NCBI GenBank assembly: GCA_027083345.1
Contig: JALWOZ010000012.1
Span: 4,025-68,024 of the forward strand
Origin: Candidatus Kaiserbacteria bacterium
GTDB lineage: Bacteria; Patescibacteriota; Minisyncoccia; Phycocordibacterales; UBA2100
Direction: 5' to 3'
Length of the DNA: 64,000 nt
The translations under genes were made by a program, and so were the position numbers. Under the pieces are notes generated by a model. The model was not told the origin of the DNA. It ran no database searches and worked only from the letters and a program-made list of their open reading frames with translations. This document shows positions 22,877-31,008 of this stretch, piece after piece (the first letter of the stretch is position 1; each line of letters begins with the position of its first letter).

Positions 22877-22883
22877 AACAATG

Positions 22884-22957
22884 TACGCGTACCAGGATTC
22901 GAACCTGGGACCTCATCAGTATCAGTGATGCGCTCTAACCAACTGAGCTATACGCGT
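22884..22957 (-). tRNA. tRNA-Ile (anticodon GAT).
   Basis: Manual fold: acceptor ACGCGTA/TACGCGT, D-arm GCTC/GAGC, anticodon stem CATCA/TGATG with loop CTGATAC, T-arm CCAGG-TTCGAAT-CCTGG. Confidence 0.75.
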
Positions 22958-23006
22958 ATAACGATAAATACTGTGCGAAGAAGTATATCAGACTTTTTGT
23001 AGATTT

Positions 23007-23822
23007 CTACCTATCTAAGCCCTCGCCTAATCTACTATAATTCTTAATAACCTCACCACAATGACGACAATGTACTGCATCAAGTTCATGCATTGAGAGA
23101 CCACATTTACTGCACTTGACATGTGCCCTCTTACCTCGGAATACGGCTCTGGACATATGCATAAAGAGCAAGATGCCGACAACCATTGCAACAACAGAGA
23201 TAAGCTTCCCTCCCTGCCCAACCACTGTAACATCTCCATAGCCTGTGGTGGTCAGAGTAGAAACTGCAAAATACAATGCATCTATATATGTATTAATATT
23301 AGGATTATGAGTAACTTGAGAAGCATAAATAACAGCAGTGGTTACCAATAAAAATATAATAAAGTTAATAACACTAGCCACTATATCCCAATTACGCGCA
23401 ACTACCTGACTCTGGATTTTAGACAAATTCATTATCCTGTATATACGAAATACTCGTATCCACTTTATAAGCCTAAGTGCTGCAAAATTACCAACAAACA
23501 ATGGCATAAAAAGCGAACCTATAACAAGAACGTCTATAAGACTAAACAAATTGAAAACAAATTTAACCTTTTTAGGTGATACCCATAATTGAGCCAAATA
23601 TTCTAATGTAAACACTAAACCAAAAAACACTTCTATACTCTTGATAAGCCAATGTCTCTCAGGGAAAGCTACCTCTATTATAAACAAAGAGAAAACAAAA
23701 AGGTTAACAATTATCAATATAATATAAAACTGCTGACTTTGCTTGCTCTTACCCGCAAACAGACTACGCACCTTCTTCTTTAACTTGTCCCTAGTTTTTT
23801 GCTGATCTTTTTTAACTGTCAT
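23007..23822 (-). CDS. Voltage-gated-type potassium channel (6TM) with a C-terminal zinc-ribbon.
   Basis: It has the K+ selectivity filter TTTGYGDV and an S4-like segment with R at every third position (LRLIKWIRVFRIYRI). The C-terminal sequence CSKCGLSMHELDAVHCRHCGEV forms a Cys4 ribbon. Confidence 0.65.
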   Translation of the reverse strand: MTVKKDQQKTRDKLKKKVRSLFAGKSKQSQQFYIILIIVNLFVFSLFIIEVAFPERHWLIKSIEVFFGLVFTLEYLAQLWVSPKKVKFVFNLFSLIDVLVIGSLFMPLFVGNFAALRLIKWIRVFRIYRIMNLSKIQSQVVARNWDIVASVINFIIFLLVTTAVIYASQVTHNPNINTYIDALYFAVSTLTTTGYGDVTVVGQGGKLISVVAMVVGILLFMHMSRAVFRGKRAHVKCSKCGLSMHELDAVHCRHCGEVIKNYSRLGEGLDR

Positions 23823-23900
23823 ACGTATACCACTACTTAAAGACTACTTTTGTACCCTTAAGTGTAGCATGTATTATACCACTTTCTTTAAGAACTTGCT

Positions 23901-25700
23901 CTACTGAATATATGGCGCTCGCGGAGTACCATTCCATCGAACGTATTCAACTTCAACATCAGGTTTGGCGTTTGGTACAGGGAAACCTAAATTGCTACCG
24001 AAAAACAATCTACTATATAATTTTGAGCCGTCAAACCCACATACATACGGCGCAACATCTCCCCCTATATGATAATCATAAATAACAGGTATAGGATTAT
24101 CGTCAAGATACACATATGCATAAATACTCTCTTTAGGCAAAACTAAACGTATTTTATGGAACTTGTCAGTCAAGTCTGTTTTATATGTATCAAACCCTAC
24201 TCCAAGCGTACCTGAAGACATAGTAATACCATCCGGAGACAAACTAAGGGTTACTGTGCCAAACTGACTAAGATAAGAAACTACCCAAGCATTACTGTCG
24301 CTGTTAGGTTTAACACGTGCTTTTACCTCTAATGTAATACCGCTAGTGCCTGTAGTACCACTTGGACTACATACCATATGTGAAGAAGCATCATTCCAAA
24401 GAGTTGTATTTGGTAAAGATCCCGCAACCACACCCTGTCCTCCATACAAAGCACCGTTAAACCCTTGTACAGAATTAATCATGCCAGAGAAAGCCTCGCT
24501 AATCGAAGCACTAATCGGCAAAGATGGTATTGTTGGTTTTTGTTGTACTGGCGTTAATCTCTGAGAAGGTGCGAAGCTACCTAATCTATATTTAACATAA
24601 TCTATCACATATGCTGCATTTTTATCCGGAGCATTGCTTGCATCTCCTATAAGTAACTGGGGATATTTATAATAAGTCTGCAACTCTTGAGAAAGGCTAT
24701 TTTGAGTAGGAGCCATAGCATACCCAGCCTCTACACCATCAATATAAACATGCATCCTATATGCAGACCCTTGTTTATTGCTTTGTGTAATCCGTATAGT
24801 ATGGAACTTTGATCCTCCTCCAAAATCTCTCGTAAACACATTATCATCTACGTCTCCAGTCCCTACACGAACAGTACCTATACGAGAATTCCAAGTAGGA
24901 GTTAGTGAGACTCTCCATTGAGCACGACCTTTCTCTCCAACAAAACTAACTATAAAACCATCTTTATCTGTTTGCTCATATAATTTAACTCGCATCTCTA
25001 CGGTCATTCCTTTATCTACTGCACTATCAAGCAGAGGATCACGAATCCAAAAATTACCTGTCTCTAATTTATCTATAGCCCGATACCCCACATCATACGT
25101 GTCGACATCCATAAAACCACGTGATGGATAATTTAACCGTTGTGAGGCACTAAATAAAGGTTTGCCTGTATTGGCCATATAATTCCAATCATCCGGTCCT
25201 CCAATATCCCACCTAAAGGGATTTGGTACATTATCTGATGGAGTATCTGAACCATCAAATACATTATGCCACAAACCTCCATCAAACGTATAATTCCACA
25301 TAGCGGAACGTTCATTTATAAACGTTTGAGAATCTTGAGATTGGCATGTTGCATTTGTGTATGAACCATCCAATATCCCATCTATACAAGTCCTAACCTG
25401 ACTTTGACATTGACTGCCGTAAGGTACTGTCGAATCTTTATATGCTATTACATTACTCCCATGCGCTATGGTCTGCCCACCAAAAATACAAGACTTAGGA
25501 GCAACACACGACTGTTTAGATGAAGCTGAATAAGCATTCAATTCTCTCTTTAATTCAACAATTTGAGTTTGCAGCAACCCTATTATCTTAAGTAGAGACT
25601 GAATTTGATTAAATAATACGTCTGCCGTAACTGCACGAGCTGTTACAGGCAATACAAAAAATATTGCGACTATTAATAGTGTTAATATTGTCTTTCTCAT
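23901..25700 (-). CDS. Large secreted hypothetical protein with a signal peptide and an N-proximal coiled coil.
   Basis: MRKTILTLLIVAIFFVLPVTARA looks like a signal peptide. No recognisable catalytic motif was found. The start was chosen at the ATG at 25700; the track extends to a TTG at 25727. Confidence 0.4.
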   Translation of the reverse strand: MRKTILTLLIVAIFFVLPVTARAVTADVLFNQIQSLLKIIGLLQTQIVELKRELNAYSASSKQSCVAPKSCIFGGQTIAHGSNVIAYKDSTVPYGSQCQSQVRTCIDGILDGSYTNATCQSQDSQTFINERSAMWNYTFDGGLWHNVFDGSDTPSDNVPNPFRWDIGGPDDWNYMANTGKPLFSASQRLNYPSRGFMDVDTYDVGYRAIDKLETGNFWIRDPLLDSAVDKGMTVEMRVKLYEQTDKDGFIVSFVGEKGRAQWRVSLTPTWNSRIGTVRVGTGDVDDNVFTRDFGGGSKFHTIRITQSNKQGSAYRMHVYIDGVEAGYAMAPTQNSLSQELQTYYKYPQLLIGDASNAPDKNAAYVIDYVKYRLGSFAPSQRLTPVQQKPTIPSLPISASISEAFSGMINSVQGFNGALYGGQGVVAGSLPNTTLWNDASSHMVCSPSGTTGTSGITLEVKARVKPNSDSNAWVVSYLSQFGTVTLSLSPDGITMSSGTLGVGFDTYKTDLTDKFHKIRLVLPKESIYAYVYLDDNPIPVIYDYHIGGDVAPYVCGFDGSKLYSRLFFGSNLGFPVPNAKPDVEVEYVRWNGTPRAPYIQ

Positions 25701-25713
25701 AAACTGTAGTGTA

Positions 25714-25793
25714 ACATATGTAATCAATATAACTACTACTTTATACTAACACAACACTACTATACATATGTTATCAATTAATGTTGTCAATTA
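25714..25793. repeat. Three copies of an ATGTWATCAAT(TA) motif upstream of the secreted-protein gene. Two copies are tandem 13-mers (25768-25780 and 25781-25793) and one copy lies at about 25714-25728.
   Basis: Direct repeats are visible in the sequence, with 12/13 and 14/15 identities. They are a candidate operator or promoter element. Confidence 0.35.
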
Positions 25794-27931
25794 AAGATAA
25801 TTTTATCACCCTTAAGTGTAGCACGGATTGTATCACCGTCTTCAAACTTACCTCCAATAAGTGCCATTGCCAGCTCATCTAAGAGCTCTGTCTGTACGGC
25901 CCTCTTGAGCGGACGCGCACCGTACGCTGGGTCATAACCAACCTTTGCTATATGATCTTTAACAGCGTCATCTACCTCTAGGGTAATATTGCGCTCGTCT
26001 TTAATACTCTTTATTACTTGCTTGATTTGTATCTCTGCTATCTGTCGTAACATCTCTTTATCAAGAGCTGTAAATTGCACTATGTCGTCAATTCTATTCA
26101 AAAACTCTGGCCTAAAGTGCACTCTCACAGCATCCATCACCTTCTTCTCAGCACTCTTATCTACCTTGCCATCTTTGTCTCCAAGTAAGAATTCACTACC
26201 GATGTTACTTGTGAGTATGATTATTGTATTACTGAAGTTGACAGTCCTGCCATGATTGTCTGTGAGTCTACCATCGTCAAGAACCTGCAAGAGTAAGTTA
26301 AATACCTCCGGGTGAGCCTTCTCAACCTCATCAAAGAGCACTACTGAGTATGGCCTACGGCGCACAGGCTCTGTGAGTTGCCCTCCCTCCTCGTGACCGA
26401 TGTAGCCAGGAGGCGCACCTATAAGCCTGGCTACAGAGTGCTTCTCCATATACTCACTCATATCTATCCTCACCATCGCCTTCTTGGAGTCAAAGAGCTC
26501 TAGTGCAAGCGCTCTTGCAAGCTCCGTCTTGCCGACCCCTGTAGGCCCAAGGAAGAGAAATGAACCAATGGGCTTCTCATGACTCTTGAGGCCAGCGCGA
26601 CTCCTGCGCACCGCACGCGCCACAGCGCTCACAGCCTCCTCTTGCCCTACAACATGCTTTTGCAATTGCTCCTCAAGCTTTGTCAACTTGTCTGCCTCGG
26701 CCTCTACAAGGCGCTCGCTTGGTATACCCGTCCAGTGAGCCACTACCTTTGCCACATCCTCCTCTGTCACTTCCTCACGGATCATACGCTTGCTCTCTGG
26801 TATGACCTCAAGCTCCTTCTGCAACTCTGCTATCTCCTTCTCTAGCTTTGGTATTTTATTATATTGTATTTCCGCAACCTTCTCATATAGTGCCTCACGC
26901 TCATACTGCTCCATCTCCGTCCTTAAGTAGTCTATCTTCTCAGCAACCTCTTTTTGTTTGGCCAGAGCCTCCTTCTCCTTCTTCCACTGCTCCATCTCTT
27001 TATCATTCTCCTCTTTGAGATTTTTGATCCTCTCCTCTATTTTTTGCAATTTCTCTTTATTCTTTGTGCCTTTCTCTTTCTTTAGCATCTCCTTCTCTAT
27101 CTCTAGGCGGGCTATCTCTCTGTTGGCACTGTCTAGCACAGCAGGCATACTCTCTGCCTCTGTCTTAAGCACGCTTGTGGCTTCATCTACCAAATCTATT
27201 GCCTTATCTGGTAAAAAGCGGTCTGAGATGTACCTGTCTGAGAGCTTAGCGGCAGCCACAAGAGCCTCATCTGAGATGCGTACTCCGTGGTGTACCTCAT
27301 ACTTCTCTTTAAGCCCTCGCAAGATTGCTATTGTGTCCTCCACACTCGGCTCACCAACATATACTGGCTGGAAGCGTCGCTCTAACGCCTGATCCTTCTC
27401 TATATATTGTCTGTACTCCTCTAGGGTAGTGGCTCCTATCATATGTAACTGCCCGCGCGCAAGCATGGGCTTAAGCATATTGGCCGCGTCCATTGCTCCG
27501 CTTGTTTTGCCTGCTCCAACTATAGTGTGGAGCTCGTCTATAAAGAGTATTATCTGTCCCTGAGCCTTCTCCACCTCCTCAAGGAGCTTCTGCAAGCGCT
27601 CCTCAAACTCACCTTGATACTTGGCCCCTGCTATGAGGCTACTCATCTCTATCCCTACCACTCTCTTATCTTTAATACTCTCTGGTACATCTCCTGCAAT
27701 TATCCTCTGTGCTAACCCCTCCACTATAGCCGTCTTACCGACTCCGGGCTCGCCAATGAGCACGGGGTTGTTCTTACGCCTCCTGGCAAGCACCTGCATC
27801 ATACGACGCACCTCCTCGTCTCTACCTATCACCGGGTCGAGCTTACCCTCCTTGGCAAGTGCTGTGAAGTCTGTACCGTACTTCTCTAACACACTCTCAT
27901 TTTGACCTTGTTGTGATTGTTGGTTTGGCAT
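25787..27931 (-). CDS. clpB: Clp/Hsp100 AAA+ chaperone, ClpB-like, with a long coiled-coil M-domain and two AAA modules; no N-terminal domain.
   Basis: It has two Walker A motifs ([18 protein letters not shown] and [15 protein letters not shown]), a long KE-rich coiled-coil middle region, and a C-terminal D2 small domain. At 714 aa it is shorter than canonical ClpB. Confidence 0.8.
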
Positions 27932-27967
27932 AAGCTCTATAGATTAGTTAATAATTTTAATATTTAT

Positions 27968-27995
27968 ATTATACACCGCCTGTCAAGTATCACAA
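27968..27995 (-). promoter_or_regulatory. Candidate clpB promoter (TTGTGA, 16 nt spacer, TATAAT on the minus strand), about 35 nt upstream of the ATG.
   Basis: A perfect -10 hexamer was read from the reverse complement of 27968-27973. The -35 is moderate. Confidence 0.35.
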
Positions 27996-28085
27996 AAACT
28001 TGCAAATTGCTCTCTCTCTTGGTATTTTTGTCTTTAGAGTCACAATAGCAATTCCGCCAGTGGCAAAAACAAGGAGGAAAAAAAT

Positions 28086-28232
28086 ATGGGGAGAAAGATG
28101 AGAACAGCCCCTCAGAAAAAACACGCAATGAGGGGATTCGTACCTCGTTGCGGAAGGGGGTCTAACGGCCCCAAGAAAATGAAAGCTCGGTGCTGTCTGA
28201 GTAGACACAGGCGTAGGAGGAAACCTGTATGA
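28086..28232 (+). other. GC-rich small ORF (48 codons) preceded by a strong SD and encoding a very basic Cys-containing peptide (MGRKMRTAPQKKHAMRGFVPRCGRGSNGPKKMKARCCLSRHRRRRKPV). It could instead be a structured ncRNA.
   Basis: AAGGAGG lies 8 nt before the ATG at 28086, the frame is open to the TGA at 28230-28232, and a hairpin terminator follows about 30 nt later. It is below the ORF-track size cutoff. Arg-rich ORFs can arise by chance in GC/purine-rich DNA. Confidence 0.25.
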
Positions 28233-28262
28233 TCTCTCAATGAACATCAAAGGAACATCAAA

Positions 28263-28291
28263 GCCCCAAGATAGTAATATCTTGGGGCTTT
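28263..28291. terminator. Perfect hairpin gccccaagata-gtaa-tatcttggggc flanked by AAA and TTT. It is a candidate terminator for the 16S transcript (minus strand) and/or the small plus-strand cassette.
   Basis: The inverted repeat is visible. The U-tracts are short (3 nt) on both sides. Confidence 0.45.
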
Positions 28292-28684
28292 AACTTATCC
28301 GTTACAATTAAATAGCTAATCACCATACACTAAACCTGCAATTTCTCAATTACACAGTCTTAAAAATGTAGAAACAAATGAGTGTATACTCTTTTGTTTC
28401 GTCCACTTTACCACAGTGCACTCTCTGCTGTGGATTTCGGCTGTCTTTCCAGCTGTCATGTATAGATTAAGGTGCAATACAATTGCCCAATAGCAATAGT
28501 GCTATTATCGACAAGTAAGTCAAGTATGCGTACGCAATACTCGACGGATTCCATTTGGATTGATTCCACGACCAGCTTCCGCTAGCCGTGCCTTGTTACG
28601 ACTTATACCTTGTCACTGAATTTACCTTAGGCTGCCATAAAGACAGACTTTGGGTACTCCCAGCTCCCTTGTATTGACGGGCGG

Positions 28685-29576
28685 ATTGCAATAATGAAGG
28701 TTATCATCTTGCGTTCCCACGTAGCAAACGGTTTTCCCGTACTACGCGAGTCCAATAGTTCACTGATTCATACTTTGCTTAAAAGTACGAATCTTTTCAA
28801 TACCTTTTGGTGTCAGATGCTTACCTTGGCTAACCAAGTCTGCAATCTGACAAAAGATTTTGAAGCTTCTACCTTTAGAGGTAGTCTGCAGTTTATGCTT
28901 TTTGAAAAATGGAATCAGTGTTGACTCTATATCTCTCCAAGCACTTACAGTGTATCTATAACACTGAGTGTGATTTTTACGTTGTTCTTTTTGAAAATAT
29001 ACATTGCCACAATTAAGGGTTTTGCATATTCTATCTAGTATTCCTTTGTCTTTTGCTTGTAATTTTAAGTGAAAGTGCAACTGCACCTTATATCCACTTT
29101 TATAAGCTTTTGACTTAACAATACTGACATAAAAACAACCTTCACCATCAGTGATACCAACAATGTAATCTGCTGATACTATCGGTTTCGTCCTTCCCAT
29201 GCTACTTATTATAACATAACTTGCTATAATTAGATTGACGCATGGTACTACGACTCAGCTGACTTCTCATAACTTCTGACAAAACCTTTTCGGTGTCATG
29301 AGATCTCCCTGGGTCACTCTACATACCATTCTAAACATCCAACTACGACTTTTATCGTATACTTCTTCAATACCCACCAGAGTGAATCGTATACGTCGTT
29401 TTGATTATCATGTATTGCTACATGGAAGGCTGTTCTTCGCTACTTAGACCCTTCAGACGCTCTCTCGCGAGACGCGTCCTGTCTTTTCACTACGCTTATC
29501 TTACAACCGGTTGACTATAAGTAAGGGATTGATTTTAACAATCTGGCATTTTGTAGAGCTGCCAGGCACAGTTATT
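28685..29576 (-). mobile_element. Intervening sequence (intron-like) inside the 16S gene that carries a homing-endonuclease ORF.
   Basis: 16S collinearity with E. coli is broken after ...CCGCCCGTC on one side and resumes at GTACTCACA on the other. The insert is AT/GC-mixed and encodes a LAGLIDADG protein in the same orientation as the rRNA. The group I versus other class was not determined, and the boundaries are accurate to about 2 nt. Confidence 0.7.
28760..29200 (-). CDS. LAGLIDADG-family homing endonuclease (single-motif type).
   Basis: IVGITDGEGCFYVSI is a canonical LAGLIDADG motif. The 146-aa size fits homodimeric I-CreI-like enzymes. It is located inside the rRNA insertion. Confidence 0.75.
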   Translation of the reverse strand: MGRTKPIVSADYIVGITDGEGCFYVSIVKSKAYKSGYKVQLHFHLKLQAKDKGILDRICKTLNCGNVYFQKEQRKNHTQCYRYTVSAWRDIESTLIPFFKKHKLQTTSKGRSFKIFCQIADLVSQGKHLTPKGIEKIRTFKQSMNQ

Positions 29577-31008
29577 TGTGAGTACAAGGCTCGAGAACGT
29601 ATTCACCGTGACTTGCTGATTCACGATTACTAGCGATTCCGACTTCATGAGGTCGAGTTGCAGACCTCAATCCGAACTTGGGCTACTTTTAGGGATTTGC
29701 TCCAGCTTACGCCATCGCGCCCCTCTGTAGTAACCATTGTAGCGTGTGTGCAGCCCGGGATGTCAAAGGGACATGCTGACTTGGCGTCATCCTCACCTTC
29801 CTCCCCCGTGAGGGGGCAGTCTCGCCTGACAAATATAACAGGCAACGAGGGTTGCGTTCGTTACCCCACTTAAGGGAACAATTCAAACCACGAACTGACG
29901 ACAGCCATGCATCACCTGCCTAACACCCTCGAAGGAACCTATCTTTCAATAGGCGTGCAGTTAGGTTTCAAACCCCGGTAAGGTTTTCCGTTTAGCTACG
30001 AATTAAGCCACGCGCTCCACCGCTTGTGCGAGCCCCCGTCTATTCCTTTGAGTTTTAAACTTGCGTTCGTACTACCCAGGCGGTCCGTTTAACGCGTTAG
30101 CTACGTCTCAGAGAGGGTCGATGCTCCCTAAAACTAACGGACAGCGTTTAGGCCTAGGACTACTGGGGTATCTAATCCCATTCGCTACCCTAGGTTTCGT
30201 GTCTCAGCGTCAGGAGTGGTCCAGTGTGTTGCCTTCGCTTTTGGTGTTCCCCAAGATATCAACGGATTTCACCCCTACACCTTGAGTTCCACACACCTCT
30301 ACCATCCTCTAGTGTTGCCGTTTCGCTCGCCTTCCCGGGGTTAGGCCCCGGACTTTAACAAACGACTAACAACACCGCCTACACACCCTTTACGCCCAGT
30401 GAATCCGGGTAACGCTTGAGGCTCACGTATTACCGCTCCTGCTGGCACGTGATTAGGAGCCCCTTATTCATGAGGTAACGTCAATAAACTTCCTCCCTCA
30501 TAAAAGGTATTTACGCACCGAAGTGCTTCATCTACCACGCGGCATCGCACCGTCACACTTTCGTGCATTGCGGATGATTCTCGACTGCAGCCTCCCGTAG
30601 GAGTTTGGACCGTGTCTAAGTTCCAATGGTGGGGGTCAGGCTCTCACCTCCCCTAAGCGTCGTAGCCTTGGTAAGCCATTACCTTACCAACAAGCTGATA
30701 CTAAGCAGGCCGCTCCATAAGCGATAAATCTTTCCTCTTGCGAGATATCGTGTATTATCCTGGATTTCTCCAGGTTATTCACGACTTATGGGTACGTTCC
30801 TACCTGTTACTACCCCGTTTGCCATGGGTCTAACCCATTCGACTTGCATGCCTTATCCATGCCGCCAGCGTTCACCCTGAGCTAGGATCAAACTCTAATT
30901 AAAAAGTGAACGAAACAAAAGAAAATACAATCTTTTGATATCGTGGTTGTTACTGATTCTTTTAAAACGTAATGTTTTGTGTAGTTTAAACTTTTCTAAA
31001 CAAAAAGA

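Follow-up and report, generated by a model that had tools for sequence, protein, structure and literature searches.

Analysis of the 16S ribosomal RNA (rRNA) gene in a 64-kb stretch of a Candidatus Kaiserbacteria genome (assembly GCA_027083345.1, contig JALWOZ010000012.1, positions 4,025 to 68,024; the whole stretch is called the window here and is numbered from its first letter) revealed an insert of 894 nucleotides (nt) on the minus strand, at 29578..28685. This insert is, with high confidence, a mobile group II intron with a IIC-like core that is located between A1398 and C1399 (Escherichia coli numbering) and carries a LAGLIDADG homing endonuclease gene in place of the usual reverse transcriptase gene. 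All six domains of the group II ribozyme are backed by covariation among 49 to 52 relatives. An earlier note on this DNA had described a 16S gene split near E. coli positions 1390 to 1400 by about 0.9 kb of sequence and had left the intron class open. The position and size were borne out by the alignments and by the junctions of the relatives, and the class is group II with a IIC-like core, not group I.

Position and boundaries of the insert in the 16S rRNA gene

The minus strand of the window contains a bacterial small-subunit (SSU) rRNA gene (Rfam RF00177, SSU_rRNA_bacteria, 1268 bits). A blastn comparison of the window 16S with E. coli genomes gave no continuous alignment across the insert; collinearity ended at position 29578. 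Read along the RNA strand, the gene runs to ...GAAUACGUUCUCGAGCCUUGUACUCA, is interrupted by 894 nt of foreign sequence, resumes with CCGCCCGUCAAUACAAGGGAGC... and continues to GUCGUAACAAGG and the 3' end. After in silico deletion of 29578..28685, the 16S sequence was collinear with E. coli 16S through the 3' end in a MAFFT alignment. With GUACACA (1392 to 1398) and AAGUCGUAACAAGG (from 1492) as numbering anchors in E. coli 16S, the insertion site lies between A1398 and C1399 in the decoding-centre strand. The 5' exon (E. coli 1 to 1398) corresponds to 29579..30903 and ends in ...GCCTTGTACTCA at A29579. The 3' exon (E. coli approximately 1399 to 1542) corresponds to 28553..28684, with an approximate 3' end; it begins with CCGCCCGTC at C28684 and is 97% identical to the 3' exon of the closest relative, L002. 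The interval proposed in the earlier note, 28685 to 29576 (892 nt), was correct on its 3' side and 2 nt short on its 5' side, where CA had been miscounted as exon. The exon end GTACTCACA given there was rejected, as it is 2 nt longer than E. coli and the intron-less relatives.

The boundaries were verified in relatives. One genome per GTDB species was scanned, which yielded 166 tblastn-confirmed stretches encoding a relative of the endonuclease; the best 80 of these (L002 to L081) are referred to as the related loci. A pattern search revealed common junctions in 57 of the 80, with a 5' exon ending in ...TTGTAC[T/A]CA, any base (N) at the first intron position, an intron ending in ...AAT, and a 3' exon beginning with CCGCCCGTC. 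Inserts with these junctions are 814 to 1028 nt long, and L044 is longer solely through an N gap. At the first intron position, A, T, C, and G are about equally frequent. Because this base varies freely among the relatives, the 5' exon must end at A1398.

A metagenome scan using the lineage's own flanks detected seven intron-less 16S contigs (L082 to L088) with the exact sequence CCTTGTACTCACCGCCCGTCAATACAAGGGAGC. These intron-less relatives, with 95 to 96% 16S identity, read GTACTCA followed directly by CCGCCCGTC. The spliced window gene aligned with L083 over its full 1457 nt with no break and 95.1% identity, and L085 was 96.3% identical to the spliced gene over 1229 nt. These results indicate that precise removal of the 894 nt recreates a naturally occurring 16S sequence. 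In L044, a UBA3527 scaffold, an intron-bearing junction is followed within positions 2061 to 2420 by 271 N and by a junction lacking the intron, TACGTTCCCGAGCCTTGTACTCACCGCCCGTC, that leads into the same downstream exon. This arrangement suggests either that the sampled population contained both alleles or that the scaffolding is an artefact.

The Rfam SSU match itself extends over 29522..30903 (model positions 1 to 1533), so that 56 nt of the intron are absorbed and the 3' exon at 28553-28684 is omitted. Since the 3' end of the SSU model is forced into the intron (to 29522), standard automatic annotation loses the true 3' exon.

Covariation supports a group II ribozyme with a IIC-like core

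Segments of 3.2 kb and 1 kb around the insert were scanned with the Rfam covariance models at E <= 10, a scan that the earlier note had proposed for introns of groups I and II. No group I model matched. RF01998 (group-II-D1D4-1) matched 29301..29190, a segment that lies just ahead of the start codon of the endonuclease open reading frame (ORF) and overlaps it, with 37.7 bits (gathering score, 35), and otherwise weak chance matches were obtained (sar, SL2, Afu_182, and TUSC7). Because the RF01998 match alone was marginal, the structure was examined by comparison. The last 80 intron bases together with 8 exon bases were aligned for 49 sequences (alignment A2, domains V and VI), and the 5' part of the intron was aligned for 52 sequences (alignment A3, domains I to III) and folded with RNAalifold. 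The consensus fold of A3 contained 62 pairs, 52 of them with compensatory changes. When the pairing between intron-binding site 1 (IBS1) in the exon and exon-binding site 1 (EBS1) in the intron was included, 97.0% of 3461 cells were paired and compensatory changes were present in 53 of 67 pairs, compared to 31 to 41% paired cells in slid controls; none of 500 shuffles reached the observed values. For domains V and VI, 97.0% of the cells were paired and 13 of 22 pairs had changed on both sides, compared to 28 to 43% in slid controls, and none of 500 shuffles was as high.

Domain I (29308..29566; all intron features are on the minus strand) consists of a closing helix, nested helices, and three hairpins in the RNAalifold consensus. 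The closing helix, CCUGG/CCAGG (29566-29562 with 29312-29308), directly follows the GUGCC motif at the 5' end of the intron, and the inner helices and hairpins are located at 29559-29552/29323-29316, 29543-29527, 29484-29446, and 29393-29358. Each helix is 93 to 100% paired, and every helix shows compensatory changes. Domain II (29261..29307) has 11 pairs, 8 of them compensatory, is 96.8% paired, and belongs to the RF01998 match. The J2/3 linker (29255..29260) is situated inside the near-invariant GAGAAGUCAGCUG, is made up of invariant A3 columns, and matches the RF01998 consensus AGAAgUCAGCAGAg. Domain III (29190..29254), likewise within the RF01998 match, has helices that are 95.6 to 100% paired, and its 3' strand, GCAUGGGAAGGAC, holds the ORF start codon. 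Domain IV (28752..29185) consists of a basal stem, CCGAUAG (29185-29179) with CUAUUGG (28758-28752), and the ORF as its loop. This 7-bp stem is 95% paired with 32 distinct sequence pairs, compared to 18 to 46% at shifted registers, and several pair types occur at five of the seven positions.

Domain V (28716..28750, 35 nt) is 99.5% paired over 14 pairs, 5 of them compensatory. In the window it is composed of a 10-bp lower helix, a UU bulge in the 3' strand (28727-28726), a 4-bp upper helix, and a GAAAA loop, which reads GAAAN in the A2 alignment. The triad is C28748-G28747-C28746, whose middle G takes part in a G.U wobble; 44 of 45 distinct sequences have this CGC with the wobble. A 3-nt joiner leads from domain V to domain VI (28688..28712), in which all 8 pairs counted are compensatory. 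Domain VI contains a bulged A, A28692, 8 nt before the 3' end, and this A is invariant in all 49 sequences. The intron ends in AAU (28687-28685); AAU was found in 47 of the 49 sequences and GAU and CAU in the others, so that AU is common to all. Outside the ORF, the ribozyme comprises approximately 450 nt. The CGC triad and this size fit a IIC-like core.

A covariance model of domains V and VI, R1, was built and gave exactly one match in the 64-kb window. Among the 80 related loci, 79 likewise had a single match, next to the endonuclease gene; 31 of those loci had not been used in building the model. The only miss was L035, where the stored sequence (length 2925) stops 2 nt past the ORF match (2501-2923). 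Eight loci (L018, L024, L030, L033, L034, L041, L057, and L060) have approximately 40 to 55 extra nt downstream of the ORF, inside the R1 span. The R1 matches in these loci are 129 to 142 nt long and score 49 to 60 bits, compared to approximately 88 nt and 75 to 107 bits elsewhere.

LAGLIDADG genes are typical of group I introns, and over half of the CPR (candidate phyla radiation) rRNA inserts are group I-like according to a published survey (PMC11270868). At another site of its 16S gene, the related locus L065 additionally carries a true group I intron (781-1063, RF00028, 74 bits). That the window insert is a group I intron with a LAGLIDADG gene has nevertheless practically no probability: RF00028 did not match at E <= 10, the last base of the 5' exon is A and not U, that of the intron is U and not G, and the covarying fold is that of a group II intron with domain V, the bulged A of domain VI, and EBS1-IBS1 pairing. 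The earlier note had already taken the lack of U at the 5' exon end as a sign against group I, which was the right clue.

EBS1-IBS1 pairing places the 5' splice site upstream of a terminal linker

The counterpart of the group II 5' motif GUGYG is GUGCC (29565..29569). It is separated from the exon by a 5'-terminal linker, CAAAUAACU (29570..29578), which is absent from the intron-less alleles. Among the 52 relatives, the linker is 9 nt long in 45, with a range of 8 to 12 nt; it is A-rich, and its first base is unconserved. The motif GYGCY was found in all 52 sequences (GCGCU in 16, GUGCC in 13, GCGCC in 12, and GUGCU in 11). IBS1 corresponds to the last five exon bases, ACUCA (29579..29583), which pair with EBS1 (UGGGU, 29372..29376) in the terminal loop of the domain Id hairpin, within the conserved GGUGRGU. 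Over the 52 sequences, these 5 bp are 99.2% paired, in the combinations ACUCA/UGAGU (36), ACUCA/UGGGU (10), ACACA/UGUGU (4), and ACUCA/UGAGG (2). In all four cases in which the exon had changed from U to A (ACACA), EBS1 had changed from A to U (UGUGU). The covariation of EBS1 with the exon and the intron-less alleles place the 5' splice site between A1398 and the linker, 9 nt upstream of GYGCY, and the linker is predicted to be removed with the intron.

Splicing at the canonical position, directly at GUGCC, would instead give a mature 16S rRNA that retains the 9-nt linker, an insertion specific to the lineage. The invariance of GYGCY and the unconserved base at the exon/linker junction agree with such a product, which we consider very unlikely, since EBS1 pairs and covaries with the exon bases just upstream of the linker and not with the linker itself. 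In addition, the linker varies in sequence and length and is missing from the intron-less alleles of close relatives. Splicing 1 to 33 nt upstream of GUGYG has been documented for other rRNA group II introns, namely, those of fungi (PMC4424553), and several families of LAGLIDADG group II introns, among them the bacterial family, are recorded as having a "5' terminal linker" (PMC13190283).

Some bacterial rRNA genes contain intervening sequences that lead to a fragmented rRNA (PMC11270868). The insert might accordingly be cut out by host RNases of the RNase III type without ligation, leaving a functional fragmented 16S rRNA and a group II-like fold that is a relic. This is improbable in view of the strong purifying selection and the compensatory changes seen for the catalytic elements (triad, bulge, branch A, and EBS1-IBS1) in 79 of 80 relatives. 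Moreover, the insert ends do not pair into an RNase III stem, and a break at 1398/1399 in the decoding-centre strand would presumably be unusually harmful.

The endonuclease gene is threaded through the ribozyme

The ORF within the insert (28760..29200) encodes a protein of 146 amino acids in the rRNA orientation. Its identification as a LAGLIDADG homing endonuclease in the earlier note was confirmed by Pfam LAGLIDADG_1 (78.2 bits, E 9.6e-22; cut-off, 23.1) and by 810 homologues in the protein collection. The protein has a single motif, IVGITDGEGCF, at residues 13 to 23; within GITDGEG, D18 and E20 are invariant in 23 sequences. The nearest solved structures are two-domain enzymes of the I-OnuI family from fungal mitochondria, both halves of which align to the ORF (E 1e-42). 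The single motif and the alignment to both halves indicate a single-domain protein, which presumably acts as a homodimer.

The ORF begins inside domain III, takes up domain IV, and normally extends into domain V before it stops; in the window, it ends 6 codons earlier. The 3' strand of domain III is made up of the start codon and the codons after it, AUG GGA AGG AC; in the domain IV stem, codons 6 to 8 serve as the 5' strand and the T-I-G codons as the 3' strand. In the relatives, the 5' strand of domain V, with the CGC triad in it, consists of G-L-A-stop (GGA CUC GCG UAG). The N-terminal MGRT and the C-terminal TIGLA are highly conserved because their codons double as ribozyme strands. In the more distant loci L064 to L080, there is no ATG in domain III; the ORF begins upstream and reads J2/3 as ..RSQLR.. 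from AGAAGUCAGCUGAG, so that the coding frame spans even more of the ribozyme.

In the relatives, the ORF comprises 152 amino acids and ends in ...MNQR-TIGLA. The window has a premature TGA (28762-28760) at the codon where the 98%-identical L002 has CGA (C>T), and the last six residues, RTIGLA, are lost. The affected segment (28742..28762) contains this TGA and 6 further codons followed by TAG (28744-28742), which are still translated in the relatives. The lost residues lie beyond the conserved fold, and the whole LAGLIDADG fold is intact. TGA is a sense codon in some CPR lineages; such a reading of the window TGA is considered unlikely for this lineage, and the closest relative has CGA there.

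The premature stop, together with the presence of one visible 16S gene in the window, could also indicate that the intron no longer splices and that the window copy of the 16S gene is either a pseudogene or an artefact of assembly. We assign this explanation a very low probability. Outside the ORF, the ribozyme differs from that of L002 at 5 positions, and all helices are paired in the window. The same arrangement was found in dozens of independent assemblies, and the exons represent an intact 16S gene.

Proposed splicing mechanism and mobility of the intron

We infer splicing, branching, and endonuclease activity of the window element from its sequence features. According to established group II chemistry, domain V would bind the catalytic metals. 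The EBS1-IBS1 helix would hold the 5' junction, which would be attacked by the 2'-OH of A28692 (lariat formation) or by water. IIC introns often use water in the first step in vitro. The freed 5' exon would then attack the 3' junction after AAU, so that the ribozyme would carry out two transesterifications and restore the decoding-centre strand GUACUCA-CCGCCCGUC. An EBS3 G, which may be the invariant G of the GA/GAA internal loop of domain Id, would pair with the first base of the 3' exon, C. Splicing would have to be efficient, because the single 16S gene, as far as the window shows, is hit in the decoding-centre strand.

As in other members of the LAGLIDADG family, the homodimeric endonuclease would cut intron-less 16S rDNA at the insertion site, and the intron would be copied in through double-strand-break repair. 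This would be DNA-level homing and not retrohoming. The intron-less junction in L083 and L085 is a candidate substrate of the endonuclease. These two intron-less alleles (95.1 and 96.3%) are as near to the window 16S as the intron-bearing L002. Comparison of the window with L002 revealed 98.4% identity in the intron (14 differences in 894 nt) and 95.6 to 96.3% identity in the flanking exons (Fisher p = 1e-4 to 2e-3). Both the distribution of the alleles and the contrast between intron and exon identity fit a mobile element. In L002, approximately 170 extra nt (804-973) were observed near 16S positions ~160 to 175 as a gap between blast segments; they are absent from the window gene and represent another insert at a different site.

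Several observations weigh against the assignment as a mobile group II intron. RF01998 is barely above its gathering score in the window and reaches this score in one of eight relatives scanned. RF00029 (domain V/VI) gave no match in the window at E <= 10 and no match at the gathering score in the eight relatives. The canonical GUGYG is not located at the splice site, and the fifth base of the motif is Y instead of G. The ORF has, in addition to the premature stop, three amino acid changes relative to L002, including F for the nearly invariant L140, and the endonuclease in this genome could be decaying. The contrast between intron and exon identity comes from a single pair of metagenome-assembled sequences.

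Relation to known introns and distribution of the family

In the collections searched, the family is restricted to genomes of CPR/Patescibacteria. Nearly all of the best 80 loci are labelled Patescibacteria or CPR; a few are labelled just "bacterium," and L072 is labelled Gammaproteobacteria. The labels include Paceibacterota, Kaiser-, Wolfe-, Nomura-, Giovannoni-, Doudna-, Vogel-, Niyogi-, and Harrisonbacteria, and others.

A survey of CPR rRNA genes by Tsurumaki et al. (2024, J Bacteriol; PMC11270868) reports 53 "group II intron-like" inserts, mostly at the site 16IS9 (16S ~1400). Thirty-nine of the 53 encode LAGLIDADG proteins, with LAGLIDADG_1 predominant at 16IS9, and none encodes a reverse transcriptase; fungal and giant-sulfur-bacterium precedents are cited there. 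The 16IS9 inserts share with the window element the host clade, the gene, an Rfam-based group II call, a LAGLIDADG_1 ORF, and the lack of a reverse transcriptase, and their site is the same within the resolution of the survey. The window element is another instance of these inserts, and the element class is already known. The splice sites, the 5' linker, EBS1, the anatomy of domains V and VI, and the overlap of the ORF with the ribozyme were worked out here; no mention of them was found in the parts of the survey that were searched.

A census by Liu et al. (2026; PMC13190283) lists 753 LAGLIDADG group II introns with one bacterial family, rns-1396. Introns of this family are built on a IIC backbone, all carry a linker, lack EBS2, and encode a single-motif enzyme in domain IV. 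They come from Thiomargarita and relatives, the giant sulfur bacteria in which the family was reported in 2012 (Salman et al.), and from one Saccharimonadota genome. The window element has in common with rns-1396 the location in a bacterial 16S gene and in the conserved helix 44 strand, the IIC-like core, the 5' linker, and the single-motif LAGLIDADG ORF in domain IV. The two differ in their sites: in rns-1396 the exons are GUACA and CACCGC (1396/1397; PMC13190283, Table S4), whereas in the window they are GUACUCA and CCGCCC (1398/1399), 2 nt downstream. EBS1 also differs, with UGRGU in the window family and UGUAC in rns-1396. No entry in Table S4 of the census has a CCGCCC 3' exon, which places the CPR family at 1398/1399 outside that census.

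Patescibacteria were reported to have no group II introns in a 2026 survey based on RF00029 alone (PMC13011429). This zero would be explained by the domain V-VI region of the family, which gives no RF00029 match. On balance, we lean slightly towards the view that the 1398/1399 inserts constitute a distinct, very widespread family of intact IIC-like ribozymes in Patescibacteria that is missed by RF00029 and has kept the branch-point A. On that view, the lone CPR member in the LAGLIDADG census (PMC13190283) would follow from the family's escape from RF00029. Lariat formation would then take place at a non-G nucleotide that lies 9 nt upstream of GYGCY, or domain VI would have been retained for another reason.

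LAGLIDADG group II introns with 5'-terminal insertions have also been described in fungal and algal mitochondrial rRNA genes (Toor and Zimmerly 2002; Li et al. 2011; both via PMC4424553). Like the window element, they combine a group II ribozyme with a LAGLIDADG gene in an rRNA gene and splice upstream of GUGYG, and the window protein is closest to the fungal I-OnuI family. Loss of EBS2 has been reported for these fungal and algal families (PMC4424553). In contrast to the window element, which is IIC-like (CGC triad) and encodes a single-motif enzyme, the fungal and algal introns belong to IIB1 and mostly encode two-motif monomeric enzymes. The fungal linker goes with loss of the branch-point A (PMC13190283), whereas the bulged A is invariant in the window family.

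Group IIC introns such as O.i.I1 of Oceanobacillus iheyensis share the small ribozyme, the CGC triad, and a short IBS1 with the window element. J2/3 and domain III of the window, AGAAGUCAGC...GUCGUAGUACC...GGGAAGGAC, appear similar to the corresponding region of O.i.I1. Canonical IIC introns encode a reverse transcriptase, target sites after a terminator or attC hairpin, and have GUGYG directly at the splice site. The window intron differs in all of these points, its target being an rRNA strand and not a terminator. A blastn comparison of the domain II-III segment with plasmids, directed at reverse-transcriptase-encoding group II kin, gave solely a 34-nt chance match in Entomospira.

Significance and genomic surroundings

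The intron splits the site of the universal primers 1391R/1392R (E. coli 1392 to 1406) and adds 0.9 kb to 27F-1492R amplicons. Because of the split primer site, the longer amplicon, and the misplaced end of the Rfam match, carriers are missed or mis-sized in surveys and their 16S genes are mis-annotated in assemblies. The covariation evidence further indicates that group II intron counts for Patescibacteria that rest on RF00029 alone are undercounts. The element, situated in the most conserved strand of the decoding centre, provides a clean example of a group II ribozyme in which a DNA-level homing enzyme has taken the place of the reverse transcriptase. The present analysis adds the exact anatomy, evidence that Rfam-based counts greatly understate the size of the family, and the co-occurrence of a linker and a retained branch point.

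At the 3' tail of the window 16S gene (28553-28567, minus strand), the sequence is GGAAUCAAUCCAAAU, compared to GGAUCACCUCCUUA in E. coli; the CCUCC anti-Shine-Dalgarno core is missing. Most related loci likewise have no CCUCC core, e.g., GGATTAATTCCAATTGGA. The sequence GGATCACCTCCTTT is kept in seven loci (L057, L065, L066, L072, L073, L079, and, nearly, L071).

No 23S or 5S rRNA gene follows the 16S gene (22883-28550, minus strand), and no match to an LSU (large-subunit rRNA) model was obtained in the whole 64 kb; in the window, the rRNA genes are unlinked. The next genes on the same strand are an ORF for a Clp/Hsp100-type ATPase of 714 amino acids (25787-27931) and tRNA-Ile(GAT) (22883-22957). 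A perfect GC-rich hairpin (AAAGCCCCAAGAUA...UAUCUUGGGGCUUU) is located at approximately 28259-28295, between the 16S and ATPase genes, together with a weak plus-strand match to "sar RNA." This hairpin is probably a terminator or a processing stem.

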